Source: Alphaproteobacteria bacterium
GTDB lineage: Bacteria > Pseudomonadota > Alphaproteobacteria > CAAHEQ01 > UBA3637
Assembly: GCA_017962565.1 (NCBI GenBank)
Contig: JAGCVC010000020.1
Span: 68,622 to 132,621, forward strand
Direction of reading: 5' to 3'
DNA: 64,000 bases
Below the pieces are notes generated by a model. That model saw nothing but the letters and a program-made list of their open reading frames with translations. It did not search any database and was not told where the DNA came from. Both the position numbers and the translations under genes were made by a program. Positions within the stretch are counted from its first letter, which is position 1. The number at the start of each line of letters is the position of its first letter. Of the stretch, positions 6,207-22,666 are shown in pieces.

Positions 6207-6965
6207 TTATTTCACTGTTTCAGCAATTGCCCAAAAATCGTCTGCTTTCAAACTGGCACCGCCAACCAAAGCACCATCCACATCGGACAAGCTCAACAAT
6301 TCCGCTGCATTACTCGGCTTAACAGATCCGCCGTACAAAATTTGCATTTTATCAGCAATATCTTGTCCCAACAATTTTGCTAATTCCGAACGAATAAATG
6401 CATGAACTTCTTCGACTTCTGCCGTTGTCGGAATTTTTCCCGTACCAATAGCCCAAACAGGTTCATAAGCAATAACAACCTTGCCTGCTGTTGCATTTAA
6501 AGGGACAGAACCACGTACTTGCGCACCGACAACATCCAAAGTTTTACCGGCTTCGCGTTCAGCCAAAGTTTCACCAACGCAAATAATCACGCCCAAATCT
6601 GCAGCCAAAGCAGCTGTTGCTTTTGCATTTACCAATTCGTTTGTTTCAAAATGATCAGCACGACGTTCCGAATGTCCGACAATAACGCCACCGCAACCCA
6701 AATCTTTTAACATCAACGGGCTGACATCACCTGTATGAGCACCTTTTTCAAATTGGGAACAATCTTGTGCACCGACCCAAACACCCGAATTTTTTGCAGC
6801 ATCGGCAACCGCATCCAAAATAGTGAACGGTGGAGCAATAAACATATCAAATTTTTTATCTTCCAATGCTTTGTATTTTTCAGCAACAGCCGTTGCCAAA
6901 GCAATTCCGTCCGCCTTCAAGCCGTTCATTTTCCAGTTACCGGCAATTAATTTTCTTCTTGTCAT
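6207..6965 (-). CDS. tpiA: triosephosphate isomerase
   Basis: 252 aa; IAGNWKMNG..., GHSERR, AYEPVWAIGTG motifs. Confidence 0.95.
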   Translation of the reverse strand: MTRRKLIAGNWKMNGLKADGIALATAVAEKYKALEDKKFDMFIAPPFTILDAVADAAKNSGVWVGAQDCSQFEKGAHTGDVSPLMLKDLGCGGVIVGHSERRADHFETNELVNAKATAALAADLGVIICVGETLAEREAGKTLDVVGAQVRGSVPLNATAGKVVIAYEPVWAIGTGKIPTTAEVEEVHAFIRSELAKLLGQDIADKMQILYGGSVKPSNAAELLSLSDVDGALVGGASLKADDFWAIAETVK

Positions 6966-7050
6966 TTTAATCCTCTTTCATAGTAAAACAATAGCATACA
7001 TTTAGCACATTTTAAGTTTTTTTCAAGAACTTTTTCATAAAAGCCCATAA

Positions 7051-7827
7051 TTATTTTTTTGGCAAATGTCGTAATATCGGGTGAATTATACAAGCCGGCA
7101 GAGCACTCATCAACCAAGCACCCAAGGCCATTGGCAACGGAAAAGCAATAATTGCTTTATTTTTGGCAATACCTTTTTGAATAATTTTAGCGGCCTTTGC
7201 CGGTTGCATCAAAAACGGCATTCGGAAAGCATTTGCATCCGTCAGTGGCGTTTTAATAAAGCCCGGACAAATCACATTGACCTTGATATTTTCATCTTTC
7301 AACCAACCGCGCAAGCCTTCTCCCCACGCTTTGACGCATGATTTACTGGCAGAATATGCCGGTGCATAAGGCAATCCGCGATATCCGGCAATAGAGCTGA
7401 CAATAGCAACCTGCCCGCTTTTACGTTTACGCATCCTCTCCAAAGTCGGCAAAACGCAATTTACAACACCGGAAATGTTTGTATTGAAAATCTGTCGAGT
7501 CTGCGAACCGCCTTCCGGCTCGCCCAAAACACCACCCGATATACCGGCATTGGCAATCAGCAAATCAATCGGATGCACACTGTCCGCATTTAAAATTGCT
7601 TCCTGAACTGCAAAAGCATCCGTCACATCAAATTGGTAAGTATAAACTTCTGCGCCCTTTTCCTTACAAACAGCGGCTGTTTCGTACAAACGTTCTTTGT
7701 TGCGTCCGCATAAATACAAGCATTTATCGGGTGCGGCATAACTTTCTGCTAATGCTTTACCCAAACCGCTGGAAGCCCCTGTGATAAAGATGGAATACTT
7801 TTTCTTTTTCATTTCTTTTTTGTGCAT
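7051..7827 (-). CDS. short-chain dehydrogenase/reductase (SDR) family oxidoreductase
   Basis: ITGASSGLGKALA Rossmann motif and Y...K active-site region (YSASK). Track ORF extends to 7980, but that extension overlaps tRNA-Leu on the opposite strand. Start placed at internal ATG 7825-7827 (MHKKEMKKKKYSIFITGASSGLG). Confidence 0.75.
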   Translation of the reverse strand: MHKKEMKKKKYSIFITGASSGLGKALAESYAAPDKCLYLCGRNKERLYETAAVCKEKGAEVYTYQFDVTDAFAVQEAILNADSVHPIDLLIANAGISGGVLGEPEGGSQTRQIFNTNISGVVNCVLPTLERMRKRKSGQVAIVSSIAGYRGLPYAPAYSASKSCVKAWGEGLRGWLKDENIKVNVICPGFIKTPLTDANAFRMPFLMQPAKAAKIIQKGIAKNKAIIAFPLPMALGAWLMSALPACIIHPILRHLPKK

Positions 7828-7927
7828 TTTGCTGTTCCTTTTTAAAACTTCAAAAATTTTTAATTTTTTTCTTGACAATAAACAATATATCAATATAATA
7901 TGCTCTTGTCTACTGAAAAAAGCATGT

Positions 7928-8014
7928 GCCTCTGTGGCGGAATTGGTAGACGCGATAGACTCAAAATCTGTTGCTCGCAAGAGCGTGCTGGTTCAAGTCC
8001 GGCCAGGGGTACCA
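7928..8014 (+). tRNA. tRNA-Leu (anticodon CAA)
   Basis: Folded by hand. Acceptor stem GCCTCTG/CAGGGGT with G-U pairs, D-arm, anticodon loop CTCAAAA (CAA), long variable arm GCTCGCAAGAGCG typical of Leu. T-arm GCTGG-TTCAAGT-CCGGC, discriminator A, encoded CCA. Confidence 0.85.
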
Positions 8015-8061
8015 AATCTAACAACCGTTCCGATTGGGACGGTTTTTTATTGTTTTGCAAG
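8009..8061. repeat. att-like direct repeat copy 1: tRNA-Leu 3' end plus terminator
   Basis: 53 bp, GTACCAAATCTAACAACCGTTCCGATTGGGACGGTTTTTTATTGTTTTGCAAG. It recurs with 2 mismatches at 10180..10234. Confidence 0.8.
8021..8055 (+). terminator. rho-independent terminator of tRNA-Leu
   Basis: AACCGTTCC-GATT-GGGACGGTT 9-bp stem with tetraloop, followed by TTTTTATTGTTTT. Confidence 0.6.
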
Positions 8062-8272
8062 CATTTGAGCGAGTTCGATAACTCCCCCTTTTTAAAGGCG
8101 CCATTTCCGTAAATTATCGAACTTTTGGGATGCTGTTTCTTTATAAAACAATCACTTATAATGAGTTCAAGTCTGGCCAGCCCCAGAAACGAATTTTAAT
8201 TAATTTATTATTGACCAAGGAATCATAATTAAGTAGGATATATAAAAAGTACACAAATGTAGTGAGAAAGAA

Positions 8273-9112
8273 ATGACAAAAAGAAAATTATTTATTCCTG
8301 AAGGATATGAAGAAGATTATATCCGACACATACGACAAGAATCCAAGTACATACAAAGAAAATCACAGTTTGCAGAAGCAGAAATTCCACCTCTTGTTCC
8401 TAAATGGAAACCAACTCTAATGATGTATAATATAACAGATGAGATACAAGAAAAAAACAAACAAAGACATAGCCTTTATGACAAAATAGGTTTTTATGTG
8501 TTCCTTTTTATCTCTTTGATTATAATATATAAGGGACTATGTACAGCTAAAGGATTTTCATCTTTTATTGGAATTCTTTTACATAGAGCTTTCATTTGTT
8601 TAATTTTCGTTGGAGGACCTGTGGGTGCCATTCTATCCATTAAAACAGGTGTTGATAAACGTATTGAAAAATACAACAGACATTTAGAGGCATGGAAATA
8701 TTGGTATGAATTATATCCTCGGAAAAAAGTGATTTCTTATTGGAAAGATTTATCTGGATATAAGTTTGAAAAAGAACTTGCACAAATTTTTATTAAAAAT
8801 GGGTTTGATACTGAAATAACAAAAAAAAGTGGAGATGGTGGAGTAGACATTATACTCAATCCCAAAGGAGAAAAGATTTACATACAATGTAAAGCGTACA
8901 AAACACGTGCCGGTGTGGCTGTTGTCAGAGAGCTTTTAGGATGTATGGAATTAAACAATGTTGAATATGGTATCGTAGCCTGTACAGGAGGCTTTACGAA
9001 AGGAGCTATCGAAGCAGCACTAATGGCACACATTACTTTGTTGGATTCAAGCGATATTGTAAAGTTGATGGATAAAGACATACCATTGGATTATTTCTAT
9101 AGAAAAGAGTAA
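8273..9112 (+). CDS. membrane-anchored Mrr-family restriction endonuclease-like protein (Mrr_cat PD-(D/E)xK domain)
   Basis: 279 aa. N-terminal about 70 aa soluble region, two predicted TM helices (IGFYVFLFISLIIIYKGL; FIGILLHRAFICLIFVGGPVGAILSI). C-terminal domain has hallmark Mrr_cat motifs FEKELAQIF..., SGDGGVDII, IYIQCKAYK, GFTKGAIEAA. Confidence 0.75.
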   Translation: MTKRKLFIPEGYEEDYIRHIRQESKYIQRKSQFAEAEIPPLVPKWKPTLMMYNITDEIQEKNKQRHSLYDKIGFYVFLFISLIIIYKGLCTAKGFSSFIGILLHRAFICLIFVGGPVGAILSIKTGVDKRIEKYNRHLEAWKYWYELYPRKKVISYWKDLSGYKFEKELAQIFIKNGFDTEITKKSGDGGVDIILNPKGEKIYIQCKAYKTRAGVAVVRELLGCMELNNVEYGIVACTGGFTKGAIEAALMAHITLLDSSDIVKLMDKDIPLDYFYRKE

Positions 9113-9224
9113 CTTCTTTAATTCTTATTTTCTTGATTTTCTTGCCATAATATGATACAGTTCAGATATTAAAAATAGAAAAACATTTTCAAAATTTTAG
9201 TTAAAAAGAAATGAAGGATTTAAT

Positions 9225-10061
9225 ATGGCTAGTTATTCAGAATTAAATAGTAAATATTTCATAGATAATAAGGCATTTAATTGTCCCTTTTGTGGTTTAA
9301 GAAATACTACTTATACTATATTAGCAATTTTAAAGTATGATTTAAATAAAAACAAGTCTGCTAAAGTTATTTTTGTCCGCTGCAATAGATGTGGAAAAGT
9401 ATCCATTCATTTTGCTTCTTGTGATATACAAACTTCATGGGGAAAAGATGCACTTGGTGTTATCAAAGGTTTCAGTGGTTCTTCTGTGTGGATTAATACA
9501 TTGAATAATATCGATTTTTTAAATTCTAAAAATGATGATAGCGAATTTGATATCGATATAGATTCTAAAATATATCACAGTATTCCCTCTTCATCTTTTA
9601 CAATGGATGAACGAATCCCCAGGAATTTAAGAGATCTTTTTGATGAAGCTCAAGAATGCAAAAAAGCAAATTTAAAGACAGGAGCATCAGCTTGTTTAAG
9701 AAAATTAGTTTATACTTTGTTATCAGATCAGCTAAATAAAAAGCATAAAAAGACGAAGCAATCAATAAAAGATTTAGGCTACGAACATTATTCTGATTGT
9801 ATTAAAGCCTTAAAAGAATATCATCCTAATTTAAGCGTTTTTATCGCCCCTCTAGAAGGTATTACAGGTATAACTAGCGACCAAGTGCATGAAGATTCAT
9901 GGGCTGAAATATCATCACAAGATTTGGGCATTTGCTTAGAAGCTATGAGGGATTTATTAAACCAGATATATGTTCAACCTGCTATCTTGAAAGAAAGAGA
10001 AAACAAAATACGTGAAATGAGTAAGAAAGCATCCACTAAAAAAAAGAGTACGGATAAATAA
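9225..10061 (+). CDS. hypothetical protein with N-terminal Cys4 zinc ribbon and C-terminal DUF4145-like helical domain
   Basis: 278 aa. CPFCG...(26 aa)...CNRCG zinc-ribbon spacing. The C-terminal region (LFDEAQECKKANLKTGASACLRKLVYTLLSD ... GITSDQVHED ... EAMRDLLNQIY) resembles DUF4145 as I recall it, unverified. 112 bp downstream of the Mrr-like gene on the same strand. Confidence 0.5.
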   Translation: MASYSELNSKYFIDNKAFNCPFCGLRNTTYTILAILKYDLNKNKSAKVIFVRCNRCGKVSIHFASCDIQTSWGKDALGVIKGFSGSSVWINTLNNIDFLNSKNDDSEFDIDIDSKIYHSIPSSSFTMDERIPRNLRDLFDEAQECKKANLKTGASACLRKLVYTLLSDQLNKKHKKTKQSIKDLGYEHYSDCIKALKEYHPNLSVFIAPLEGITGITSDQVHEDSWAEISSQDLGICLEAMRDLLNQIYVQPAILKERENKIREMSKKASTKKKSTDK

Positions 10062-10097
10062 ACTTTCTCTCATAAAAAATTTAAAACAGGACCTCGA

Positions 10098-10125
10098 CGT
10101 CCTTAATTAAATCATTTATTTGCTG
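10098..10125 (+). terminator. possible weak terminator after 9225..10061
   Basis: AGGAC-CTCGAC-GTCCT short hairpin followed by an AT-rich tract. Weak. Confidence 0.3.
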
Positions 10126-10150
10126 TACCAACTTTTTGAAATCGTCCGGA

Positions 10151-10234
10151 TGTTTGGCTCGGTATTCGTTAAGCATGCTGTACCAAATTTAACAACCGTT
10201 CCGATTGGGACGGTTGTTTTATTGTTTTGCAAGG
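10151..10234. repeat. att-like direct repeat copy 2 (29-nt prefix plus 55-nt tRNA 3' end/terminator copy)
   Basis: 10180..10234 matches 8009..8061 with 2 mismatches and includes the terminator hairpin. The prefix TGTTTGGCTCGGTATTCGTTAAGCATGCT is shared with the copy at 10904. Confidence 0.8.
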
Positions 10235-10254
10235 TTGTTTTGAATAAAATTCTA

Positions 10255-10812
10255 TTATCTTCCGGAACGACAAAAGATTGCAACATTATGGAATAATTTA
10301 CACCCTCTGTGATTTTTCCCTAGATTTCTTATTTCTCCAATCGTTGTTTGAGAACCTTCCTTCATATTAAAAAGATCTAATGAAACATCCGGACAATCCA
10401 TGCATAAAATAGCAATTCCTTCTGCTGTTTCGGGATTACCATCTAAATCTAAATATAAATCGGCGTATCGATGAGATAATATTTGGGTTGGTTTAATAGG
10501 CAAATTTCCTACTTTTCCGCTGATAGATAAAGTTTCCTTAATAAGCATATTTGTGTACTTTTTACCACCACTACCGTACAAAGCATTTTTATCTGTAAAA
10601 TTACCTTCACCGCTTATAGAGCCTTTTGCATTAAAAGAAAATGGTGCGATTGATGTCCCATCAACTTCATCAGCTTTTATATACGTTTCTTTTTTGATAA
10701 TGCGAACAGAGGTATTATCTTTTCTTTCATCTACTTTTTCCCATGCGTTTACATTGAATAAAGCAGAAAAAATCGTCATTCCTAAAATCAATTGTTTTAA
10801 TTCTTTTTTCAT
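10255..10812 (-). CDS. hypothetical secreted protein (ORFan)
   Basis: Track ORF 10255..10929. Start moved to MKKELKQLILGMTIFSALFNVNA (signal-peptide-like) at 10810-10812 so the gene does not overlap the repeat at 10904-10950. Cys-rich C-terminus. No recognised family. Confidence 0.5.
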   Translation of the reverse strand: MKKELKQLILGMTIFSALFNVNAWEKVDERKDNTSVRIIKKETYIKADEVDGTSIAPFSFNAKGSISGEGNFTDKNALYGSGGKKYTNMLIKETLSISGKVGNLPIKPTQILSHRYADLYLDLDGNPETAEGIAILCMDCPDVSLDLFNMKEGSQTTIGEIRNLGKNHRGCKLFHNVAIFCRSGR

Positions 10813-10903
10813 CTTTAAACCTTCTTTTATGTGTTTCGAGAGCATCATTCTAGCATATTTTATTTTTTTGTCAAGATTTTTTACAAGTGTAAAGTATTCC
10901 GTG

Positions 10904-10950
10904 TGTTTGGCTCGGTATTCGCAAAGCACGCCGTACCAAATTTAACAACC
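10904..10950. repeat. att-like direct repeat copy 3
   Basis: TGTTTGGCTCGGTATTCGCAAAGCACGCCGTACCAAATTTAACAACC: 47 nt matching 10151..10197 with about 5 mismatches. Lacks the terminator-hairpin part. Confidence 0.7.
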
Positions 10951-11057
10951 ATTAAATTATGAACAATTATTTGTCAGTTGATTTCTCGACTATGTTTTTA
11001 TTGACAATTTTTCGATTTTTTGTAAAAATAAAAATCTAATTTGACGGAGAATTAAAT

Positions 11058-12236
11058 ATGGCTACATTAAAAACCAAAGTTTTAAACATTGAATTTGAAA
11101 ATCCTTTTTTATTATCATCTGCGCCACCAACCGCACGCATAGATAGTATTGATAAAGCTTTTGAACTCGGTTGGGGCGGTGCCGTACTTAAAACGATTAC
11201 TCCGGATAATTTGGAAATGATAGAAGCCAGCCCGCGTTATGCTGCGTGGAAATTAAACGGTAAAGTATATGGTTTTGAAAACATCGAATTACTGAGTCAT
11301 TTAACTGTTCAAGAATGGTTGGATGGTATTGCTTATCTTAAAGCTAAACATCCTAAAAAAGTAATCATCGCCAGTATTATGGCTCCGGTTATCAAAGAAG
11401 AGTGGCAAAAACTTGTTAAAACTTTAAACAATACATCAATTGATGCCTTTGAGTTAAACTTTTCTTGTCCTCATGGCATGCCGGAAAAAGGCATCGGCAT
11501 GGCAATTGGAACAGATCCTGAAATATCGGCAAACATTACAAAATGGGTAAAACAAGTAGCTCAAAAGCCTGTATTTGTAAAGCTTTCTCCGAATGTTTCA
11601 AACATTAGCAAAATTGCTCAGGCTGTGATAGATGCAAATGCCGATGGCTTATCTGCGATAAACACTGTACAATCAATAATGGGAGTGGATTTAGATACCT
11701 TGGAACCACAACCAAATGTCAATGGAACATCTACTTTTGGCGGATATTCCGGTATAGCCATAAAGCCAATCGGTCTAAGATGCGTTGCTCAAATAAGGCA
11801 AACAACGGACAAACCGATTTTAGGAATGGGCGGAGTATCAAATTGGCATGATGCTGCCGAATATATAGCTATTGGTGCAGATGTTGTTCAAGTTTGTACC
11901 GAAGTTATGATAAACGGCTATGAAATTATAAAACCTATGTGCGATGGATTACTCAATTATTTAGAAAGCAAAGGTTTTAACTCTCCAAATGACATAAAAA
12001 ACAAGGCATTTGTCAAACTGACATCTCATGAAAAATTGAAAAAGATGCATACATGCCACCCAGATATAAATGATGAAAAGTGCTTGAAATGTGGTAAATG
12101 CGTTTCTATTTGTGCAGAACAAGAACATAGTGCTCTGCACTTGGAAGATCGCAGTGTAAAAGTTGACATGGAAAAATGTGTGGGTTGCTCGCTTTGTTCG
12201 ATTGTCTGTACTCGTGGCGCAATTAAAATGAAGTAG
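11058..12236 (+). CDS. dihydroorotate dehydrogenase-family flavoprotein with two C-terminal 4Fe-4S ferredoxin motifs (PreA-like dihydropyrimidine dehydrogenase subunit)
   Basis: 392 aa. TIM-barrel DHOD/DHPD-like N-terminal body (GGAVLKTIT, FELNFSCPHG, GGVSNWHDAAEYIAIGA). C-terminal CLKCGKCVSIC and CVGCSLCSIVC clusters. GGAG SD 8 nt upstream. Confidence 0.75.
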   Translation: MATLKTKVLNIEFENPFLLSSAPPTARIDSIDKAFELGWGGAVLKTITPDNLEMIEASPRYAAWKLNGKVYGFENIELLSHLTVQEWLDGIAYLKAKHPKKVIIASIMAPVIKEEWQKLVKTLNNTSIDAFELNFSCPHGMPEKGIGMAIGTDPEISANITKWVKQVAQKPVFVKLSPNVSNISKIAQAVIDANADGLSAINTVQSIMGVDLDTLEPQPNVNGTSTFGGYSGIAIKPIGLRCVAQIRQTTDKPILGMGGVSNWHDAAEYIAIGADVVQVCTEVMINGYEIIKPMCDGLLNYLESKGFNSPNDIKNKAFVKLTSHEKLKKMHTCHPDINDEKCLKCGKCVSICAEQEHSALHLEDRSVKVDMEKCVGCSLCSIVCTRGAIKMK

Positions 12237-12255
12237 CTCAATCGCCTGGCACATT

Positions 12256-12273
12256 GTACCAAATTTAACAACC
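12256..12273. repeat. att-like direct repeat copy 4 (core only)
   Basis: GTACCAAATTTAACAACC, identical to the core of copies 2 and 3, located 20 nt after the preA-like stop. Confidence 0.55.
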
Positions 12274-12390
12274 ACTTAGAAATGTTTTTTTCATTGTTTT
12301 TCGATTGGAAGCAAGTAACAATTATTTTTGGAAATATAATTAGTTATAAAAGATTGACAATGTAATATTTTCAGCGCTATTATTGAAACC

Positions 12391-14022
12391 ATGAAAAAAT
12401 ATGCTTTTTCTTTTAGCAAAACGACTTTGATTAGTGTAGTTCGTCTCTGCAAAACGTGGGGTGCCTATTTTCTTAAACTACTTTTCTTGTCATTACTTTT
12501 ATCAATGCCACTATGGTGTATGGATTATTGCTTGAATTGGCTTGGGATCTACATTCAACCTCATTTTCATGTAGATTCTTTCTTTTTAGCAGTTTTGTTA
12601 TCCCTATTGTTAATTCACGTCAAAAGTAATTATTTTTTTTATTCGATATTTGTCGGATTATTGTTAATAATATATATCGGTTTTTTCCATTATTTATATT
12701 TTGGAAGATATTTTACCGGATATGATATTTCTTTATTTTTCAATGAAATGCAAGATACAATCCTGGAGTTCAGTAATGATTTTTGGAAATATTGGCAGTT
12801 ATTGTTAAGTGTTATATTTGGGCTCTTATTGATGTTTTGTGTGCGGTTTTCTGCTAATCGGCATATTAAACAGTCTAATTTGTTTGTTGTGTTAATAATC
12901 CTTTCTTTAATGATTATTCCTATTCAAAATATTAAACGTGGCGGAGAATTTATTTTTCCAAATTCCGCTCAATTTATGTACTACAATGGATTAAAATCAA
13001 TTTCTTCATATTTTATCGATGTGTTAATCTCACGCAAGGAATTAAAATCATTTTTGCCCTATCAAATTGAATTAAAACATTCTTCCTCGGAACCAATGAC
13101 AATTATTTATATAATGGGAGAAAGTCTGTCGGCGGATCATTTGTCTTTATTTGGGTATGCAAGAAAAACGACCCCTTATTTAGAAGAATGGGCTAAACAG
13201 CAAAACTTTTATTATACACGCGGAGTTTCAGGATCTACTGTAACACGCAATTCAATTGCGGCATTTATAAATTTCCAAAAAGAACCGGAAAATTATACCT
13301 TAGTTCAATCCAAGGAACATAATTTGTTTAAATTAGGAAAAAGGGCTGATTTTTCTACAACATTTATGAGTGCCCAAACATTTTCCTCGTTTCCTCATGT
13401 AGGGCTGGAATATGTTGACTATTCTTTTTATAAAGGTAAAAGAAACTTACCTTTAATTTTAGGAGATGATTTTTGGCAAGAAAATTTAAAATCGATCCCG
13501 TTATCTAATAAAAATTTTATTGTAATTCAAATGCGGGCAATACATAGTCCTTACAAAAAAGGGTGGCAACACCGCTTTGATGATTTTAACCATTTTTCAG
13601 GACACCCTGAAGACAAAATTGATGATTATGATAACGGTGTTTTATACGTAGATTCCATTTTGAATAAGACATTAGAATGGGCAAAAGATCTTCCAGGTAA
13701 AGTATATGTGTTTTTTGCATCAGACCATAACGAATTGTTTGGAGAATATGGTATCCGAGGGCATATAACTTTGCACCGACAAGTAGCCCGTATACCTGTT
13801 TTTATTTGGAGTAATGATACGAATTTTGTCCGCGATTTTAAGTCAATTATAAATCCAAGCCATTGGGATATAGGGGAACAAATTTTGCGTTTAATGGGAT
13901 ATGAGGTTAACAATCCAAATACAGAAAAAGATATCATTTTTATACAAGGTAGTGATCCTACAGGTGAGGCAGGATTTATAACCTTAAAAAAAAGCGGTCA
14001 AGAATTAATTGAGGTACATTAA
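12391..14022 (+). CDS. phosphoethanolamine transferase (EptA/MCR-like, sulfatase-fold, 5-TM N-terminus)
   Basis: 543 aa. Five N-terminal TM helices. Periplasmic sulfatase-like domain with IYIMGESLSADHLSLFGYARKTTPYL, YDNGVLYVDSIL and ASDHNELFGEYG motifs typical of the EptA/EptB/MCR family. The nucleophile position carries Ser (GESLSA) where EptA/MCR have Thr (GETARA). Confidence 0.75.
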   Translation: MKKYAFSFSKTTLISVVRLCKTWGAYFLKLLFLSLLLSMPLWCMDYCLNWLGIYIQPHFHVDSFFLAVLLSLLLIHVKSNYFFYSIFVGLLLIIYIGFFHYLYFGRYFTGYDISLFFNEMQDTILEFSNDFWKYWQLLLSVIFGLLLMFCVRFSANRHIKQSNLFVVLIILSLMIIPIQNIKRGGEFIFPNSAQFMYYNGLKSISSYFIDVLISRKELKSFLPYQIELKHSSSEPMTIIYIMGESLSADHLSLFGYARKTTPYLEEWAKQQNFYYTRGVSGSTVTRNSIAAFINFQKEPENYTLVQSKEHNLFKLGKRADFSTTFMSAQTFSSFPHVGLEYVDYSFYKGKRNLPLILGDDFWQENLKSIPLSNKNFIVIQMRAIHSPYKKGWQHRFDDFNHFSGHPEDKIDDYDNGVLYVDSILNKTLEWAKDLPGKVYVFFASDHNELFGEYGIRGHITLHRQVARIPVFIWSNDTNFVRDFKSIINPSHWDIGEQILRLMGYEVNNPNTEKDIIFIQGSDPTGEAGFITLKKSGQELIEVH

Positions 14023-14132
14023 TTAGTTTTCAAATGTGAAACTCTAATTTCCTGAATTAAAATTTTAAAAGTTTATAAAACTTGAAACCCGCTAAATAAT
14101 TTGCCAGGTATTCGCTCAGCCCACTATATCAA

Positions 14133-14999
14133 TTACTCTCTGGTTTTTTCGACAACTTGTTGCGTACGGGCTATTTGCTTTAATTGCTTATCCGTAATTT
14201 CAGCGGTAAATACGGTTGTTGCAGGTCCGGCCATCAACACATCTTTATTTTTATCATAGCTTACAGAAAGTTCTCCTCCATCCAAAATAACTTTTGCATT
14301 ATCAGAAACCATCTTAATATGATTAGCCACCGCAAACGATGCACATGCACCCGTTCCACAAGCCATTGTGCGTCCGGATCCCCTTTCCCAAACACGCACA
14401 CGTAAAGCATCTTTCGCCTTTGCCGGTTCGATAAATTCAACGTTAGTCCGTTCCGGCGCAAAACAAGCATCGTTTTCTATTGCTTTTCCAAAATCATTGA
14501 CTTCCGTTGCTTTTATCTGCCCGGGTAAAACAACAAAATGCGGATTACCGACATTAACGCAATAACCTTCAATTAAGCGACCCAAAATCTTTAAAAGAGT
14601 TAGCTCCTTTATTTCAACCTTTCCCATATTGACCTGAACTGCACTTACTTGATTATCTTCATCTGTAAACAAAGTCAAATGCTTTACCCCAGACAAGGTT
14701 TCAATCCGTAACTTCTTTGAAGTTGTCAACCCGTTATCATATACATACTTTCCGACACAGCGAATTCCGTTTCCGCACATTTTACCTTCGGAACCATCCG
14801 AATTAAAAATACGCATTTGAAAATCATTTTTATTGTCTTTTGGCGGTAAGACAAAAATAACCCCATCCGAACCGATACCGATATGAGAAAGGCTGAAATA
14901 CTTTGCCAAATCTTCCGCATTATCTATTGCTTTCGGATATGCATAACCGTCAATGTAAACATAATCGTTTCCTAAACCGTGCATTTTTGTAAATTTCAT
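14133..14999 (-). CDS. dapF: diaminopimelate epimerase
   Basis: MKFTKMHGLGNDYVYIDG... and two catalytic Cys regions (MCGNGIRC; ACGTGACAS). Track ORF reaches 15014. The internal ATG at 14997-14999 has AAGGGA upstream and matches the conserved DapF N-terminus. Confidence 0.85.
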   Translation of the reverse strand: MKFTKMHGLGNDYVYIDGYAYPKAIDNAEDLAKYFSLSHIGIGSDGVIFVLPPKDNKNDFQMRIFNSDGSEGKMCGNGIRCVGKYVYDNGLTTSKKLRIETLSGVKHLTLFTDEDNQVSAVQVNMGKVEIKELTLLKILGRLIEGYCVNVGNPHFVVLPGQIKATEVNDFGKAIENDACFAPERTNVEFIEPAKAKDALRVRVWERGSGRTMACGTGACASFAVANHIKMVSDNAKVILDGGELSVSYDKNKDVLMAGPATTVFTAEITDKQLKQIARTQQVVEKTRE

Positions 15000-15117
15000 T
15001 TTTTTCCCTTTCATTTAAGATCTTGAAATTATTTTACTAAAAAAAACGGCATTTGCAACTTTTTTATTCAGCATTTTTATATACTCTATGCCATCAGAAA
15101 GACAGTTATCAAAATTA

Positions 15118-16299: not shown

Positions 16300-18240
16300 T
16301 TAGTTCTTTTTGGCTTTATGAAATTCCAAAACCATCATTGTAATGTCATCCGATTGTGGAGCATCCTTCACAAAACGTTGTATATGCTTATGTACATTTG
16401 CCACCGTATCCGTCAAAGACATTTCTTTTTGGTTTAATGCTTTCTTCAACCGCTCTTTATCAAAGAATTTTTCATCAATGGTTTGTGCTTCCGGAATACC
16501 ATCCGTATAAAGGAACAATCTGTCATTTTTATTTAATTTAAATTTACCACCTTCGTATTTATAATCTGGTGAAACACACAAAAATAAATTTCGAATAACA
16601 GTGATATAATCATAACCGTCTTTTGTCTTATGTAAGGGTGGACAATGACCGGCACTGACATATTGGACTTGCCCTGTTGTCAAATCAAGAATACCAACAA
16701 ATGCCGTAACAAACATACCACGTGCATGGTTGTCGCAAAGCCCTCTATTCGCTCTATTCATGGCATCTTGCAATGGATATCCAGCTTGCAACATATTTTT
16801 GATAACCGTTTTTGCTGACATCATATACAATGCAGCCGTAATTCCTTTACCGGAAACATCAGCCATGACAAAGGCAAAATGATTTTCATCGACGGGGAAA
16901 AAGTCGTAAAAATCCCCTCCGACTTCTTTTGCTGGGGTCATGGAAGCAAACAATTCAAAATATTCATTTTTAGGAAAATCCTTTGGTAAAGCAGAATCTT
17001 GAATCGTATGTGCAATAGCCAATTCAGATTCCATTTTTTCTTTTTCACTGGAAACTTTTGCCAATTGTAACAGATGCGCTTTCATGTCCGTTTTCATTTT
17101 GTTGAAAGAAGAAGCCAATTGAGCCAATTCGGATGGCTTATCCAAATGAATTGTTTTTTCCAAATCCCCTTGGCTAATTTTTTGTGCTATTTCCGTTAGT
17201 TCAGAAATCGGTTGGTTAATGTTGCGCTTTAACACCCAATACAAAATTCCGACGATGATAAGCGTGCTAATTAAAAGAACACTAAGCAACACACATAAGT
17301 GATGAAGTGCAGCTTGGAAGAGTTCAAATAAAGGGACATTGACGATTAAAAATAATCCGTTGCCGAGTTGTTTGATGTAGGGGATATATTTTGTTCCGTT
17401 ATAATTAAAGGGTTGACCTTCTTTTAATTGCTTTGAATACCACTTAAGTGTTGATAAAGATTTTCCCATAATAGCATCGTTGTTAACGCCTTTTTCCGTC
17501 GTTGCAATGATATAATCGCTTGTCTTATCTGCAAAAAGAACAAAACTGTTTGGAGTTGGTTTGATTTTCAGAATGGATTTCAAAATTGTGTCCAATTCCC
17601 AATCAACCGTTGCCATTCCAACTAAATCCTTTTGATTATAAATACCGGCTCCAACTGTTGTCATAAGAATGCCAAGTTGAGTACTTCTGTAAGGTTTTGT
17701 CCAAGATACTTTTTGTCTTTTTTGTAAGTCGTTCAAAATTTCCGGATACCAATTTTGATCAAAATAATTGAAAGTGTTTGTAACACATGAAGGAAGCATG
17801 CTGATTTGATTGTCCTTTTCCCAAACAGCATGAATACAGGAAATCTTTCTATCATCGGATATTTCGTAGGGCTTAAAGTAAATGCCGTTTCCCATCGAAT
17901 TCGGATAATTTTTCAAAATTTGTTTGGTAAAAAATTCTCCGACATCTTGTTGTTTGCCTTTTTGAAAGTAAATTTCACCCATAACAGCCAAATCTTGCGC
18001 GTTTTTTTCAAGTGCTGCAATTTCGGTGTTCAATTGACCTTCAAATGCTGTAATGGCAGAATTATTTCCGGCAATTATCAGTTCTTTATCGTGGTAAAAA
18101 GCCATAATTGCAGCACCAGTAACTACAAGTCCCAACACAAGCAATAACGAAAGAGTTAAAATAACAATTTTTGATTTGATACTGTTCAGCATTTTATTTC
18201 CTTTTTCTTCGAATATAATACTTTCACTACTTCTTTTCAA
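16300..18240 (-). CDS. sensor protein-serine/threonine phosphatase: periplasmic sensor domain, HAMP, SpoIIE/PP2C (RsbU-like)
   Basis: 646 aa. N-terminal TM, about 280-aa extracytoplasmic region, second TM, HAMP-like linker (ISELTEIAQKISQGDLEKTIH). C-terminal PP2C/SpoIIE motifs (GGDFYDFF, FVMADVSGKGITAAL, LFLYTDGIPEA). Confidence 0.8.
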   Translation of the reverse strand: MKRSSESIIFEEKGNKMLNSIKSKIVILTLSLLLVLGLVVTGAAIMAFYHDKELIIAGNNSAITAFEGQLNTEIAALEKNAQDLAVMGEIYFQKGKQQDVGEFFTKQILKNYPNSMGNGIYFKPYEISDDRKISCIHAVWEKDNQISMLPSCVTNTFNYFDQNWYPEILNDLQKRQKVSWTKPYRSTQLGILMTTVGAGIYNQKDLVGMATVDWELDTILKSILKIKPTPNSFVLFADKTSDYIIATTEKGVNNDAIMGKSLSTLKWYSKQLKEGQPFNYNGTKYIPYIKQLGNGLFLIVNVPLFELFQAALHHLCVLLSVLLISTLIIVGILYWVLKRNINQPISELTEIAQKISQGDLEKTIHLDKPSELAQLASSFNKMKTDMKAHLLQLAKVSSEKEKMESELAIAHTIQDSALPKDFPKNEYFELFASMTPAKEVGGDFYDFFPVDENHFAFVMADVSGKGITAALYMMSAKTVIKNMLQAGYPLQDAMNRANRGLCDNHARGMFVTAFVGILDLTTGQVQYVSAGHCPPLHKTKDGYDYITVIRNLFLCVSPDYKYEGGKFKLNKNDRLFLYTDGIPEAQTIDEKFFDKERLKKALNQKEMSLTDTVANVHKHIQRFVKDAPQSDDITMMVLEFHKAKKN

Positions 18241-19366
18241 TTAAAATTAACGGCACAACCATTTCTTTGTTTGTTAGTCCCGAATGCATCCCAGGTAAAT
18301 AGTTATATGTATCATTTTCAAAACGCTGCACTAAACTTTTTTCCGTCTTTGCAATAATCAAATAATCGCCTAAAAAGTCCCTGACACAAGAACGTTCTTT
18401 TCCGTATCCGAACAAATTCATTCCCAAAGCATCATTTGACTTTACCAAGATAAAATCCTTTGCCAAATACTTTTTGAATAAATCAAGGAATACCTTTTCT
18501 TTACCCTCTTTCAAAAAAACTGTTTGAGCACGTCCGTCTAATCCCAAAGGAACCGCTAAACAATCAATTAAGTCCGGATAATCATTTAACATAACATCCT
18601 TACTGTTAATATGTCCATGATCCGCAGAAATAATAACCAACGTATCCTTTAAATTCGCACACATTTGCTTTACTTTTGAATTTAAAGTTTTCAATACATC
18701 CTTAACTTCTTTAGAATAAGGACCAAACTCGTGACTGGTTGAGTCCGGATTTGTCCAGTAAGCTAAAACAAACTGTTTTCCGTCTTCTTTGGTTTGTTTT
18801 ACAACTCTTTGACAAAGTTCATCGAAATCCGATACGCCATCCGGCTTGATAAAATTCGGAAAAACGCCTGTTAATTGAACATCTGTCTGTACAGATTTAA
18901 TCCTGTCAAAAATATGCACATAAGGCATTTCTTTTACAACACTTTCTTCCAGCAATTCACCGGTATAAAAATCTTTGTTAGTAAAAATTTCAACCACACG
19001 CCCCAACTTTTTAAAATATGGCGACCATCCCAACCAACCATGTTCAACGGGAGAAAGACCGGAATAATAACTGGTTGTTGCGGCAACTGTTGTCGGTGGA
19101 AAAACAGAAGAAATTTTACCTTTAATATGCCGTCTTAAAAAAGAAAAAAAAGGCAAATCGTGTTGCAGCATATCAACACCCATTCCATCCAAAATAAGCA
19201 ACACAACATTTTTGTATTTGCGCTTTAAAGCCTGTTCCAACTCCGGCAAATGATACATATCTGTATCAACCCCATAGTGCCTTAATAAGGAATTGGATAT
19301 ACCCAATATGGAACAGTCGTAGTTTGGATAAAATATTTTTCTTTTCATAATGCCTCCTTTAAGCAA
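18227..19366 (-). CDS. alkaline-phosphatase-superfamily metalloenzyme (type I phosphodiesterase/nucleotide pyrophosphatase-like)
   Basis: 379 aa. VVLLILDGMGVDML and ADHGH metal-ligand motifs typical of the AP/NPP superfamily. 3' end overlaps the downstream sensor-phosphatase gene by 14 nt. Confidence 0.65.
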   Translation of the reverse strand: MLKGGIMKRKIFYPNYDCSILGISNSLLRHYGVDTDMYHLPELEQALKRKYKNVVLLILDGMGVDMLQHDLPFFSFLRRHIKGKISSVFPPTTVAATTSYYSGLSPVEHGWLGWSPYFKKLGRVVEIFTNKDFYTGELLEESVVKEMPYVHIFDRIKSVQTDVQLTGVFPNFIKPDGVSDFDELCQRVVKQTKEDGKQFVLAYWTNPDSTSHEFGPYSKEVKDVLKTLNSKVKQMCANLKDTLVIISADHGHINSKDVMLNDYPDLIDCLAVPLGLDGRAQTVFLKEGKEKVFLDLFKKYLAKDFILVKSNDALGMNLFGYGKERSCVRDFLGDYLIIAKTEKSLVQRFENDTYNYLPGMHSGLTNKEMVVPLILIEKK

Positions 19367-19455
19367 GTCCTATTTTAGGCATATTTTGATATGAGAATCA
19401 ACAGTTATTTTGATCCTGACTGTTTTTTTGCAACTTTGTAATTCAGTTTATTATT

Positions 19456-20031
19456 CTAAGAAATGCTTTTTGCCAAATGTTCTGCAATATTTTTGCTCAA
19501 TTGCATCCACAACATACTATATCCGTTAATTAAATCATCATAGCTCTTACCAATTTTCAACTCACTTGAAAATTTTTGCCGTTTCAACAACTTACCTGTG
19601 TTATCTTTGATTGTAAACCAAGCTTCCATTTGCGCCTTTTCACTCAAAACAGCATTCATTTTAACGACTTCCACAGTAACAAACATATCAAATTTTTCCG
19701 TAACGTTTTGACGCATTTTAATTTGTGCTTTCGGCAACAAAGCACTTAAATCCTCTGTCAACACACGTGTAGTCAAAACAGCAGGAGCTTCCACCCATCG
19801 ATTATACTCAGATATAACCATCTCAGGTGAATCTTTACCTTGTGTAACAATTTGCGGACGATCCAAATATTTGGGTAATTGAACACGTCCAACACCGATA
19901 AAAGCATTGCATTTTTTTGAAACAACAGCTGTCTGTTCGGAAGTCAGCGTATAAAACTTTGCATTTTGACTGGTCCCAAAAATACATGCACTTAAAAACA
20001 AACAAGCAACTAATAACTTAAAAAAACGCAT
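19456..20031 (-). CDS. ABC-type transport auxiliary lipoprotein (DUF330/PqiC-like) associated with the Mla/MCE system
   Basis: 191 aa. Lipoprotein signal with lipobox LSAC. Immediately downstream of mlaD in the same orientation, the usual position of this family. Confidence 0.7.
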   Translation of the reverse strand: MRFFKLLVACLFLSACIFGTSQNAKFYTLTSEQTAVVSKKCNAFIGVGRVQLPKYLDRPQIVTQGKDSPEMVISEYNRWVEAPAVLTTRVLTEDLSALLPKAQIKMRQNVTEKFDMFVTVEVVKMNAVLSEKAQMEAWFTIKDNTGKLLKRQKFSSELKIGKSYDDLINGYSMLWMQLSKNIAEHLAKSIS

Positions 20032-20032
20032 T

Positions 20033-20830
20033 TTATTCCCCCTTCTTTCCTTTAATTAAAGCTTCCGGATGTTGTTCCAAATAATCTGCCAAATTTTGTA
20101 AAGACTTTGCCGCATCCGATACGTCTTGCAATGTTTTATTCAAATTTGAAATTGTTTCATCGCTGTTATCAGATATTTTCAACAACACTTCATTTAAATT
20201 TTCGACACTCTGAGATAAAGCAGGCATCAAAATTGGTAGTTGTTTATTCAATGTTTCCGTTATATGATTAAATTGATTGATTGTATTTTGAATTTGCAAA
20301 TGATCCAATCCCTTTGAAAATTCTTCTGTTTTTGAAAGAACTGTTGGAACCTGCAAAAATTTTTCGTCATCTTGTCCATGAACTTCTTCGACTTCAGTAT
20401 CTGGTAACATAACCAACTCAATTCCTAATTGTCCTGTTAACAAACTTTGTGTCGTCAATCTGGCACGCAAACCCTGCTTAATTAAAGCATTTAACAAATC
20501 ATCTTCCCTTTGCCATATTCTTTCCCACATAGAAGCTTCTTCTGCATCTTCGAAGGGATGCATCCGAATATAAACGGGGATTTGAAATTGTAAATCTTTT
20601 GGATTCGCCACCAAACGAATACGGATAACTTTACCCACCTCTACCCCTTGAAATACAACAGGGGAACCTTCTGACAACCCTTGAATAGATTCGTGAAAAT
20701 ACATAACATAAACACCTGTTTCATCAGATCTTATTTTATGCCAAACAGATTGACAAATCAGCCAAAAAAATAAGGCAAAACCAACAATCAAAAATAAACC
20801 AATCGCTTTTTTATTAGGTTCTTTTTTCAT
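20033..20830 (-). CDS. mlaD: MCE-domain protein MlaD (outer-membrane lipid asymmetry system)
   Basis: 265 aa. N-terminal TM, MCE domain, long helical C-terminus. Follows mlaF-mlaE. Confidence 0.8.
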   Translation of the reverse strand: MKKEPNKKAIGLFLIVGFALFFWLICQSVWHKIRSDETGVYVMYFHESIQGLSEGSPVVFQGVEVGKVIRIRLVANPKDLQFQIPVYIRMHPFEDAEEASMWERIWQREDDLLNALIKQGLRARLTTQSLLTGQLGIELVMLPDTEVEEVHGQDDEKFLQVPTVLSKTEEFSKGLDHLQIQNTINQFNHITETLNKQLPILMPALSQSVENLNEVLLKISDNSDETISNLNKTLQDVSDAAKSLQNLADYLEQHPEALIKGKKGE

Positions 20831-21581
20831 AAGATGCTCCTCTGGTTAGAAATTCATAAACTTGTTCATTAGGTGGATTTTTTAACAGTTCTTTCGGATT
20901 TCCTTTTGCCGAGATGGTCTGAATCGTTTTGTCCAAAAAGATGCTGTTTTTTCCGATAGCAAAAAGAGAGGGTAATTCGTGTGTTACAACAATAATGGTT
21001 GTTCCCAAACTTTTATTAATTTCTAAAATTAAATCGTCCAAATTTTTGGAACTGACCGGATCCAATCCTGCTGAAGGTTCATCAAAATACACTATTTCCG
21101 GATCTAATGCTAAAGCTCGCGCTAAGCCCGCACGTTTGCGCATGCCTCCACTAATTTCTGAAGGATAATAACCTCCAAATCCTGCTAATCCAACCAACGC
21201 TAATTTGAAAGCAACAATATCTCGAATTTTATTTTGAGAATAGTTGGTATATTGTTGTAAAGGAAGCGCTACATTTTCAGCCAAAGTCATAGAACTGAAC
21301 AAAGCACCGCTTTGATATAAAATTCCCGAATGCTTCATTATTTCCAGTTTTTGAGCAGCCGTTGCACGCCCCATTTCAATACCTTGAATATAAATTTGAC
21401 CATTTTGCGCCGGGATTAACCCTATCAAAGTTCTCAACAGCGTACTTTTACCACATCCGGAACCGCCCATAACGATAAAAATATCACCTTTCTGCACTTC
21501 AAATGACAGATTTTTCATAATTGTTTTTCTGTCATAGCCAATATCCAGATTTTTTACGCGAATGATAGGATCTTTATTCAT
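20814..21581 (-). CDS. mlaF: ABC transporter ATP-binding protein MlaF
   Basis: Walker A GGSGCGKST, signature LSGGMRKRAGLARAL, Walker B IVYFDEPSAGLDP. Confidence 0.85.
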   Translation of the reverse strand: MNKDPIIRVKNLDIGYDRKTIMKNLSFEVQKGDIFIVMGGSGCGKSTLLRTLIGLIPAQNGQIYIQGIEMGRATAAQKLEIMKHSGILYQSGALFSSMTLAENVALPLQQYTNYSQNKIRDIVAFKLALVGLAGFGGYYPSEISGGMRKRAGLARALALDPEIVYFDEPSAGLDPVSSKNLDDLILEINKSLGTTIIVVTHELPSLFAIGKNSIFLDKTIQTISAKGNPKELLKNPPNEQVYEFLTRGASYEKRT

Positions 21582-22666
21582 TATATACCAACCATTTCAC
21601 ACGCCAAAGTGATAAAACCAGTCATAATAATCATCCACACAATTGCATAAACAACGGCTTTTGTCGTTGCTGTTCCGACACTGTCAGCATTTCTGCCGCA
21701 GTGAATTCCAAAATAACATCCGCATAAAGCAATAATAAGACTAAACATTACACCATGGAACACTCCCACTAAAAAATTTGTCATATCAAATGAATTGATG
21801 GTGTATTTAATATATTCTGATAGAGGAACTTCCAAACAGAGCACGCAAACGAAGCAACCTCCTAAAATGCCCATAATATCTGACAATAAAACCAAAATCG
21901 GCATAGACAACAAAAGAGCATTCATTCTGGGCAAAACCAGAAAATCTGTTTTGGGAATACCCATTGTTTGCAGAGCATCCAATTCTTCATTGACCTGCAT
22001 TGTACCAATACTGGCGGCATAAGAAGCGCCTGTCCGACCGGCCATAATAATGCCCGTCATAATTGCCCCCATAATACGTGTCATACCGATTGTAACCAAA
22101 CTGGCCACATAGATTTGTGCCCCGAACGTTTTTAATTGCAAAGCACCTACAAAAGCCAAAATCAAACCAACCATGAAACTGATTAAGGAAACAATCAATA
22201 TTGCTTTTGGCCCGCAATCTGACAAAACAAGCCAAAAATCCTTTTTACGATAAACAGCTTTTCCAATTAACTGACGATTCCAAGAATGAAGACATCTTCT
22301 GATGAAAATGCATCCCCGTTTAACCGATTGAGCAAAACGAATACCGTAACCACCCAAACGTTCCAAGAAACTTTCTTTTTTACTTTTGTTCTCACATTCT
22401 TTAAAGGGAGTTTGAAAAGCTAAATTTAATAATTGTTTCATTCCCTCCGGCAAATCCGTATAAGTGATATTTTCTTTAGGAACACGTTTCAATAGGTTAT
22501 AAAGCATTACTACGAAATCTGTATTCCAAGAGACAATATCTTTTCCTGACAGTTCAATTTTCTTATTTTCCAAATCACGAAAAGAAATATCGGGATGTTT
22601 AGATTCGTTCAAAACACCGCTCAAAGAGAAAACAACTATATCTTTTTTTGCTTTTACTTTAATCAT
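21581..22666 (-). CDS. mlaE: ABC transporter permease MlaE with an about 100-aa N-terminal STAS-like extension
   Basis: 361 aa. C-terminal 260 aa is a typical MlaE permease. The N-terminus (DIVVFSLSGVL...) looks like a fused MlaB/STAS-type domain. Confidence 0.8.
   Translation of the reverse strand: MIKVKAKKDIVVFSLSGVLNESKHPDISFRDLENKKIELSGKDIVSWNTDFVVMLYNLLKRVPKENITYTDLPEGMKQLLNLAFQTPFKECENKSKKESFLERLGGYGIRFAQSVKRGCIFIRRCLHSWNRQLIGKAVYRKKDFWLVLSDCGPKAILIVSLISFMVGLILAFVGALQLKTFGAQIYVASLVTIGMTRIMGAIMTGIIMAGRTGASYAASIGTMQVNEELDALQTMGIPKTDFLVLPRMNALLLSMPILVLLSDIMGILGGCFVCVLCLEVPLSEYIKYTINSFDMTNFLVGVFHGVMFSLIIALCGCYFGIHCGRNADSVGTATTKAVVYAIVWMIIMTGFITLACEMVGI

Follow-up and report, generated by a model that had tools for sequence, protein, structure and literature searches.

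A PreT-less PreA and a distant phosphoethanolamine-transferase relative in a probable cassette array at tRNA-Leu(CAA) of an uncultured gut alphaproteobacterium

We analyzed a 64-kb stretch of contig JAGCVC010000020.1 (hereafter "the window", meaning all 64,000 nucleotides) from an uncultured gut bacterium recorded as "Alphaproteobacteria bacterium", concentrating on positions 10948–14030, which hold two intact + strand open reading frames (ORFs) at 11058–12236 (392 aa) and 12391–14022 (543 aa). These are very probably two accessory genes, one for a PreA-type dihydropyrimidine dehydrogenase (DPD) subunit without PreT and the other for a distant relative of the phosphoethanolamine (PEtN) transferases, each forming one cassette of an array anchored at tRNA-Leu(CAA). 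The initial annotation had regarded the pair as cargo of a mobile islet, and this idea is supported by the position of both genes within a repeat-bounded array at that tRNA gene; the mobile-cargo context appears real, and it is unusual in form. The array is the most interesting feature of the region. Identical proteins in the same gene order were found in three other samples and in a 228-kb contig from ENA, and the GC content of the window is ∼37%.

Repeats and cassettes at tRNA-Leu(CAA)

The array is bounded by copies of a junction repeat whose 18-nt core, GTACCAAATYTAACAACC, occurs four times, always on the + strand (at 8009, 10180, 10933, and 12256), and nowhere else in the window, where 0.16 copies would be expected by chance. 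The first junction copy (8009–8130, +) is attL-like: its core, GTACCAAATCTAACAACC, overlaps the last 6 nt of tRNA-Leu(CAA) (7928–8014, +, as called by ARAGORN), with the terminal GTACCA of the tRNA gene opening the core, and is accompanied by a terminator hairpin (8023–8044) and a right arm of ∼85 nt that is also kept 3′ of tRNA-Leu in a relative (locus L005). The second copy (10084–10233, +) consists of a left arm (reading WYSMLNEYRAKHPDDFKKLVQQINDLIK... on the minus strand), a core at 10180–10197, a hairpin at 10191–10218, and the start of a right arm; the 53 nt that follow its core, terminator hairpin included, recur in the first copy, and its left arm recurs in the third (10873–10950, +), which comprises a partial left arm and then the core at 10933–10950. 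The fourth (12256–12273, +) is the 18-nt core only and lies 19 nt past the preA stop codon. The fifth copy (14050–14131, +), which is attR-like, is a degenerate left arm with 8 of 32 motif positions changed; it directly follows the stop codon of the 543-aa gene, abuts the dapF stop codon, and ends the array. No match to the motif at 9 or fewer substitutions arose in 20 shuffled windows, and the same copy was also found by tblastn (YSGLSEYLANYLAGFK..FYKLLKF).

The array thus begins with the tRNA gene and a right arm, continues internally with left arm-core-right arm junctions, and finishes with a left arm alone, which is the pattern expected of serial site-specific integration at a tRNA 3′ end, and this layout defines four cassettes. 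Two features of tandem tRNA-targeted elements, direct repeats over the tRNA 3′ end and attL/hybrid/attR asymmetry, are present. The four cassettes occupy 6.1 kb (8009–14131) between tRNA-Leu(CAA) and dapF, the chromosomal right flank (diaminopimelate epimerase, 14133–15014, −; Pfam DAP_epimerase, E 6e-56): cassette A (8027–10179) carries an Mrr-like nuclease and a PD-T7-4-like protein, cassette B (10198–10932) a 197-aa secreted-type protein on the minus strand, cassette C (10951–12255) preA, and cassette D (12274–14131) the sulfatase-fold gene encoding the 543-aa protein. Strong promoter-like sites precede preA (11001–11029) and the sulfatase-fold gene (12354–12383). GC content was considered as a sign of foreign origin and set aside as not decisive (31–37% in the cassettes vs. 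37% in the window).

The same junction recurs in related bacteria. The left-arm search pattern TTGGYTCGRTATTCGYWAAGCNNGYYGTACCA matched 19 loci in GTDB genomes, all of them gut or rumen metagenome-assembled genomes (MAGs; yak, roe deer, Hadza human) with titles naming Alphaproteobacteria or, in one case, Pseudomonadota, as well as 5 metagenome contigs; no phage or viral contig in IMG/VR was matched. At every locus with a tRNA gene in range (13 of 13), the repeat follows tRNA-Leu(CAA) in the same orientation. The cargo varies by genome (amidase, DnaB-like + WYL, serpin, ankyrin, MFS, DUF4379, LysE), and in three genomes junction repeats flank the sulfatase-fold cassette on both sides, namely in the window, L005 (80% DNA identity, with the same SDR-tRNA-Leu left flank), and L015 (85%), the homology running from ∼50 nt upstream of the start codon through the stop codon. 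A basic protein of ∼100 aa (...KRHKKERKEIERK...SQALAKRREGR), belonging to no Pfam family, recurs as array cargo (L022, 4789–5091; L023, 2853–3140, and L034, 5773–6084, both on the reverse-complemented loci; and L033), usually with a partner of 230–320 aa.

Several observations weigh against serial integration. Junction copy 4 consists of the core alone, copy 5 has decayed, neither an excised nor an empty-site form of the array was observed, and no integrase or recombinase was found in the window ORFs, the cargo ORFs, 24 related loci, or IMG/VR. The recombinase would presumably act in trans. The missing recombinase and the missing circular or empty-site form would suit a different explanation, in which the repeats are an intergenic module peculiar to this lineage, acting as a terminator or regulator, that local duplication or homologous recombination has spread around tRNA-Leu; terminator-like hairpins do occur in the junctions, and contigs from four samples show one and the same arrangement. 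Against this, the repeats are confined to the array locus within 64 kb, always follow tRNA-Leu(CAA) in its orientation, and show the attL/hybrid/attR asymmetry. In different species they enclose cargo of unrelated kinds (nuclease, serpin, ankyrin, MFS, amidase, DnaB-like/WYL, LysE, and sulfatase), and the same sulfatase cassette lies between different neighbors in three genomes. We regard the terminator module as improbable and prefer the cassette array.

A divergent sulfatase-fold protein

From its sequence and predicted fold, the 543-aa protein appears to be a distant member of the PEtN-transferase family, for which we infer both donor and acceptor. The "EptA/MCR architecture" of the initial annotation (five transmembrane [TM] segments plus a sulfatase fold) was correct: hydropathy gives five hydrophobic TM-like segments between residues 25 and 184, the AlphaFold model likewise shows helices there, and the sole Pfam domain, Sulfatase, covers residues 237–504, the predicted periplasmic part. 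The generic NCBIfam PEtN-transferase model aligns colinearly (residues 32–515 vs. model positions 15–525 of 527), and phmmer against PDB sequences returned only PEtN transferases (MCR-2, CjEptC, MCR-1, EcEptC, and NmEptA; E 8e-13 to 6e-9). An AlphaFold (AF2) model built on a family alignment of 24 sequences (mean predicted local distance difference test [pLDDT] 89.1, predicted template-modeling score [pTM] 0.83) has as its best Foldseek matches in the PDB full-length NmEptA (5fgn; TM-score 0.56) and MCR-1 (9nww_B; TM-score 0.60) over 557 columns; the next are catalytic domains of EptC, ICR-Mc, and MCR-1/2 (target-normalized TM-score 0.65–0.71), with 16–22% identity among these PEtN-transferase matches.

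The evidence against family membership is that of distance. The generic NCBIfam model, with its cut-off at 500 bits, gives only 78.8, Pfam EptA_B_N has no match at E≤0.01, and every curated subfamily model fails (EptB, 64.3 vs. 493; EptA, 47.4 vs. 561); identity to characterized PEtN transferases is only 15–22% (15–19% to each Escherichia coli paralogue), and the neighbors of the gene vary between relatives and say little about function. CptA aligns nearly full length (residues 63–475) yet scores 45.6 bits against 404, and the MCR models reach 22.7–46.5 against 1100–1250, which places the protein outside the MCR-1 to MCR-12 sequence family. Assignment to EptA, EptB, EptC/CptA, or MCR was thus rejected, none being made at cut-off. 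Conserved synteny was likewise rejected as a clue to function, as the neighbors of both genes differ in every relative.

The missed cut-offs and the lack of EptA_B_N would also be compatible with some other membrane-anchored enzyme of the alkaline-phosphatase superfamily, for instance an LtaS/OpgB-like phosphoglycerol transferase, a phosphocholine transferase, or a hydrolase, and LtaS, LtaP, PbgA, and 3lxq are indeed among the structural matches. We consider this quite unlikely, as PEtN transferases account for all of the best matches, whether by sequence or by structure, the only full-length matches that superpose well are 5fgn and 9nww_B (root-mean-square deviation ∼7 Å, compared with ∼18 Å for PbgA), and the catalytic residues fit the PEtN-transferase pattern, including SDHxE and H458.

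Those residues also settle the main claim made for this gene, that it has Ser at the nucleophile position, in a GESLSA motif replacing the GETARA of EptA and MCR-1. GESLSA (residues 243–248) does pair with the GETARA of MCR-1, MCR-2, and Campylobacter jejuni EptC, IMGESLSADH falling on the MCR VVGETARADH in every alignment. In MCR-1, however, the nucleophile is Thr285 and the zinc ligands are Glu246, Asp465, and His466 (PMC8593676). Counting along MCR-1, the Glu of GETARA is Glu246, and Thr285 lies 39 residues on, in SCGTSTAYS; phmmer aligns this segment to SGSTVTRNS of the 543-aa protein, setting query Thr285 on MCR-1 Thr285. In a reference alignment with E. coli K-12 EptA, EptB, EptC, OpgE, and BcsG and the EptA-like protein of a related MAG (L013), Thr285 again falls on the Thr of EptA, EptB, EptC, and OpgE. 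The claim fails because GESLSA, like GETARA, holds the zinc-binding Glu while the nucleophilic Thr285 is kept, and a Ser nucleophile was ruled out by pairwise, family, and reference alignments alike; what stands is that Ser follows GE where MCR has Thr, at a position equivalent to MCR-1 Thr247. The alignment with EptA, EptB, EptC, CptA, and MCR that had been proposed to assign a subfamily put Thr at the nucleophile and reached no subfamily.

Across the 24-member family alignment, G243, E244, T285, H385, D445, H446, and H458 are invariant, and directly behind the Glu most members have Ser and a few have Gly. As predicted by alignment, the catalytic set is full, with Glu244, Asp445, and His446 as metal ligands, Thr285 as nucleophile, and His385 and His458 as the two further His that EptA and MCR-1 also have, the catalytic His of MCR-1 being H395 and H478. 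In the ping-pong mechanism of the family, Thr285 would attack a phospholipid, most likely phosphatidylethanolamine, at its head-group phosphate, and the covalent intermediate would then be handed to an acceptor in the envelope.

Which acceptor this might be is hinted at by the Glu motif, which reads GET in EptA, EptB, and the L013 protein but GES in EptC (GEST), OpgE (GESA), and the 543-aa protein. Substitutions of MCR-1 Thr247 abolish polymyxin resistance, and the T247A mutant keeps ∼60% of first-step activity; the authors suggest a role for Thr247 in transfer to lipid A (PMC8593676). The Ser that our protein has in common with EptC and OpgE at this position is a weak hint of a non-lipid-A acceptor, and such an acceptor appears somewhat more likely because its motif is the GES of EptC and OpgE, which act on sugars or glucans, rather than the GET found in enzymes that modify lipid A. 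E. coli EptC (CptA; heptose-I) and OpgE (periplasmic glucan) resemble the protein in architecture, GES motif, and Thr nucleophile, but at only 17% identity. EptA and MCR-1 (NmEptA 5FGN, MCR-1 9NWW) resemble it in the full-length match of the 5-TM domain and periplasmic sulfatase-fold domain and in the Glu/Asp/His metal site, but differ, beyond the low identity and missing EptA_B_N, in the Cys of SCGTST, which is absent from its SGSTVT, and in the Thr247 that MCR-1 needs for polymyxin resistance, replaced here by Ser245.

The initial annotation had gone further, linking the islet gene to PEtN modification of lipid A or another envelope component and to polymyxin and cationic-peptide resistance; in its fullest form, this reading is an islet-acquired lipid A PEtN transferase of the EptA/MCR type with a Ser nucleophile that confers such resistance. 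The architecture and fold are EptA/MCR-like, GESLSA does stand in for GETARA, and the gene does sit within a cassette array, yet we find this reading very hard to credit. In the nucleophile column stands Thr285, which is invariant in the family and is matched by a Thr in EptA, EptB, EptC, OpgE, and MCR; the Ser occupies a position whose substitution ends polymyxin resistance in MCR-1, and the non-lipid-A enzymes EptC and OpgE have Ser there too; the EptA and MCR models score 23–47 bits against cut-offs of 561–1250; and related MAGs hold a separate canonical EptA-like gene with GETARA (L013). Nothing in our analysis supports lipid A modification or polymyxin resistance through this protein. As first described, the gene would have implied both a novel nucleophile among the PEtN transferases and a risk of mobile polymyxin resistance, and neither holds.

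The protein is instead best placed in a small family of its own. Among 8000 candidates scored from a collection of 5.8 billion proteins, 35 homologues were found at E≤1e-5, 17 of them at 61–83% identity and the remainder down to 24–44%, with named sources in Alphaproteobacteria, Campylobacteraceae, and Cloacimonadota MAGs. The canonical EptA-like protein of L013, which has EptA_B_N, GETARA, and SCGTATA, is only 25% identical to it, and relative to such proteins the family appears to be a distinct paralogous subfamily.

PreA without an adjacent PreT

The identification of the 392-aa protein as a dihydroorotate dehydrogenase (DHOD) fold with two [4Fe-4S] clusters proved sound. It contains the Pfam domain DHO_dh and one 4Fe-4S dicluster domain and nothing else, scores 453 bits on the NCBIfam PreA equivalog NF006183 (cut-off 335), and fails the PyrD models. 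It aligns to residues 534–841 (domain IV, 231 bits) and 917–997 (C-terminal Fe-S, domain V) of pig DPD, with the catalytic Cys137 in SCPHGM and CxxCxxCxxxC motifs at 342–352 and 374–384.

The initial annotation had also called the gene an orphan and considered this unusual. The C-terminal Fe-S clusters of DPD normally take their electrons from a PreT-type subunit, and of 3419 bacterial PydA genes surveyed, 2781 have a Pyr_redox_2 partner in an adjacent ORF (PMC7332683). No PreT- or GltD-like gene adjoins preA, whose neighbors are the genes for the secreted-type 197-aa protein and the sulfatase-fold protein, and none was found by Pfam and precomputed annotation among the suitably sized ORFs of the window, a screen that passed over two very large ORFs and a number of small ones. 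The search for preT, proposed for the whole genome, was run within the window. The orphan state is thus real, but it does not appear odd: the lone PreA seems typical of the lineage because five relatives (L011, L013, L014, L035, and L037), with preA at five different loci, are likewise without an adjacent PreT. Homologues form more than 100 protein clusters at 71–85% identity, nearly all exactly 392 aa long, several of them named as proteins of Alphaproteobacteria MAGs.

There is also a published precedent for a DPD without PreT. PydAc of Clostridium chromiireducens lacks the flavin adenine dinucleotide (FAD)/NADPH module, and its electrons for uracil reduction come from reduced ferredoxin or methyl viologen (PMC7332683). 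The 392-aa protein resembles it in having a PreA-type core and no FAD or NAD(P)H domains, but differs in having one ferredoxin domain, where the PydAc type has two or a second in the neighboring ORF, and in lying outside a Pyd (PydB/PydC) cluster. With E. coli PreAT, the NADH-dependent DPD, it has in common the flavin mononucleotide (FMN)/DHOD-fold domain, the catalytic Cys, and the C-terminal 2x[4Fe-4S], the difference being that no PreT, the FAD/NADH partner with 2x[4Fe-4S], adjoins the gene. Our preferred inference is a ferredoxin- or flavodoxin-fed reductase, in which uracil or thymine would be reduced at the FMN site and electrons would reach the two [4Fe-4S] clusters from a low-potential carrier of the ferredoxin/flavodoxin type or from an unlinked partner.

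Two points weigh against this preference: the Pyd pathway genes PydB and PydC are not near preA, and only 64 kb of the genome has been seen, leaving room for an unlinked PreT. The protein could then be a classical NADH-dependent PreAT enzyme with PreT encoded elsewhere in the genome, as would suit both its passing of the NF006183 equivalog cut-off and the normal feeding of DPD clusters by a PreT-type subunit (PMC7332683). This is a real but lesser possibility, in view of the window screen, of the five relatives with no adjacent PreT at five loci, and of the adjacency of the partner in 2781 of 3419 PydA genes. We thus retain the ferredoxin- or flavodoxin-fed reductase as the preferred reading.

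The surroundings of preA homologues offer some further leads. In L037, a Flavodoxin_2 (PF02525) gene (7295–7852, −) divergently adjoins preA, a possible lead to the electron donor in a single instance. In L013, the canonical EptA-like gene (6244–7824, −) is divergent beside preA (8001–9179, +), making a second independent adjacency of preA and a PEtN-transferase-type gene that may be coincidence. Homologues of preA are often beside tRNA genes, with two tRNA-Val genes just upstream in L014 (7722–7882) and a tRNA-Pro gene within 1.6 kb in L011 (10732–10808) and L037 (9253–9329). The closest relative, L035, has CTGTACCA (2431–2460) 19 nt past the preA stop codon, as in the window, which, together with the proximity to tRNA genes, is a hint that preA is mobile as a unit at other sites as well.

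The array compared with known systems

The array invites comparison with integrons and clusters of attC sites lacking integron-integrases (CALINs), with which it has in common cassettes of one or two genes, a conserved repeat between them, diverse accessory cargo, and no integrase nearby. It nevertheless lacks what defines them, i.e., attC sites, intI/attI, and mostly promoterless cassettes: its cassettes come with promoter-like sites and are found on either strand, it is anchored at a tRNA gene and not at attI/intI, and its junction has no attC-like conserved hairpin. RNAalifold on 17 junction copies gave −5.2 kcal/mol with 0 compensatory pairs and no conserved fold, and the junction was thus ruled out as an attC-like site for want of conserved structure or covariation.

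Cis-mobilizable elements (CIMEs) are integrase-less integrative elements that accrete in tandem at tRNA genes. The array resembles such accretion in its direct repeats including the tRNA 3′ end, its attL/hybrid/attR order, its tandem elements, and the lack of an integrase in cis. It differs in that its units are very small (0.75–2.2 kb, one or two genes), in that a conserved junction of ∼100 nt or more is common to many species, and in that no parental integrase-bearing element was found in the related loci or in GTDB, metagenome, and viral searches.

The left arm was also examined in its own right. As a decayed copy of tRNA-Leu it was rejected, local alignment being no better than shuffles (256/2000). 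On its minus strand it reads as a conserved peptide of ∼28 aa, WYSVLSEYRAKHLEDFKKLALEIELLKF, ending in a stop codon, with codon-position variability of 0.25/0.19/0.29; such peptide-like arms lie at 10084–10185, 10891–10938, and 14060–14128 of the window (all −) and in 37 copies in L005 and L016–L034, where the tail takes alternative forms of similar length and third positions vary mildly. The arm never lies within a long ORF, and the idea that it is the C-terminus of a longer protein was rejected. In a phmmer search of 1.8 billion representatives, the peptide returned only coiled-coil noise and spurious small ORFs through the terminator hairpin, and no longer protein was matched.

The remaining cargo can be described briefly. 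Cassette A begins with a Mrr_cat-type restriction endonuclease-like protein (279 aa; 8273–9112, +; Pfam Mrr_cat E 1e-27), for which PADLOC matched PDC-S02 and Mrr-like nuclease, and continues with a zinc-ribbon protein (278 aa; 9225–10061, +) that has a weak PADLOC match to PD-T7-4 (E 2e-6) and no significant Pfam family; the two (8273–10061), a PDC-S02-like nuclease followed by a zinc-ribbon protein, look like an anti-phage defense pair. The cassette B protein (197 aa; 10255–10848, −), a called gene in L001, has a signal-peptide-like N-terminus and no match in Pfam, NCBIfam, or PADLOC. Outside the array, a second gene of the alkaline-phosphatase superfamily (18227–19366, −; Pfam Phosphodiest/Metalloenzyme, ∼373 aa) lies directly upstream of a MlaE/MlaF/MlaD-type lipid-transport operon (19456–22666, −), making 18227–22666 another envelope-lipid locus near the cassettes.

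It is conceivable, and we put it forward only tentatively, that the array belongs to a previously undescribed cassette-capture system of gut Alphaproteobacteria that fills the role of an integron by a different working, with promoter-bearing cassettes of one or two genes, a conserved junction of ∼100–250 nt in which arm-like flanks surround a GTACCA core, and a trans-acting recombinase. Such a system, if true, would move genes for envelope modification, defense, and host interaction between species, the PEtN-transferase-like gene among them. If mobile, the array would be a tractable new example of the exchange of small accessory genes in an uncultured lineage. The 543-aa proteins form a small, poorly sampled PEtN-transferase-like subfamily that probably moves as a cassette. 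The 392-aa protein, for its part, adds to the evidence for widespread PreT-less DPDs of the PreA type in anaerobic gut bacteria, which bear on the question of which gut microbes can reduce uracil or 5-fluorouracil.

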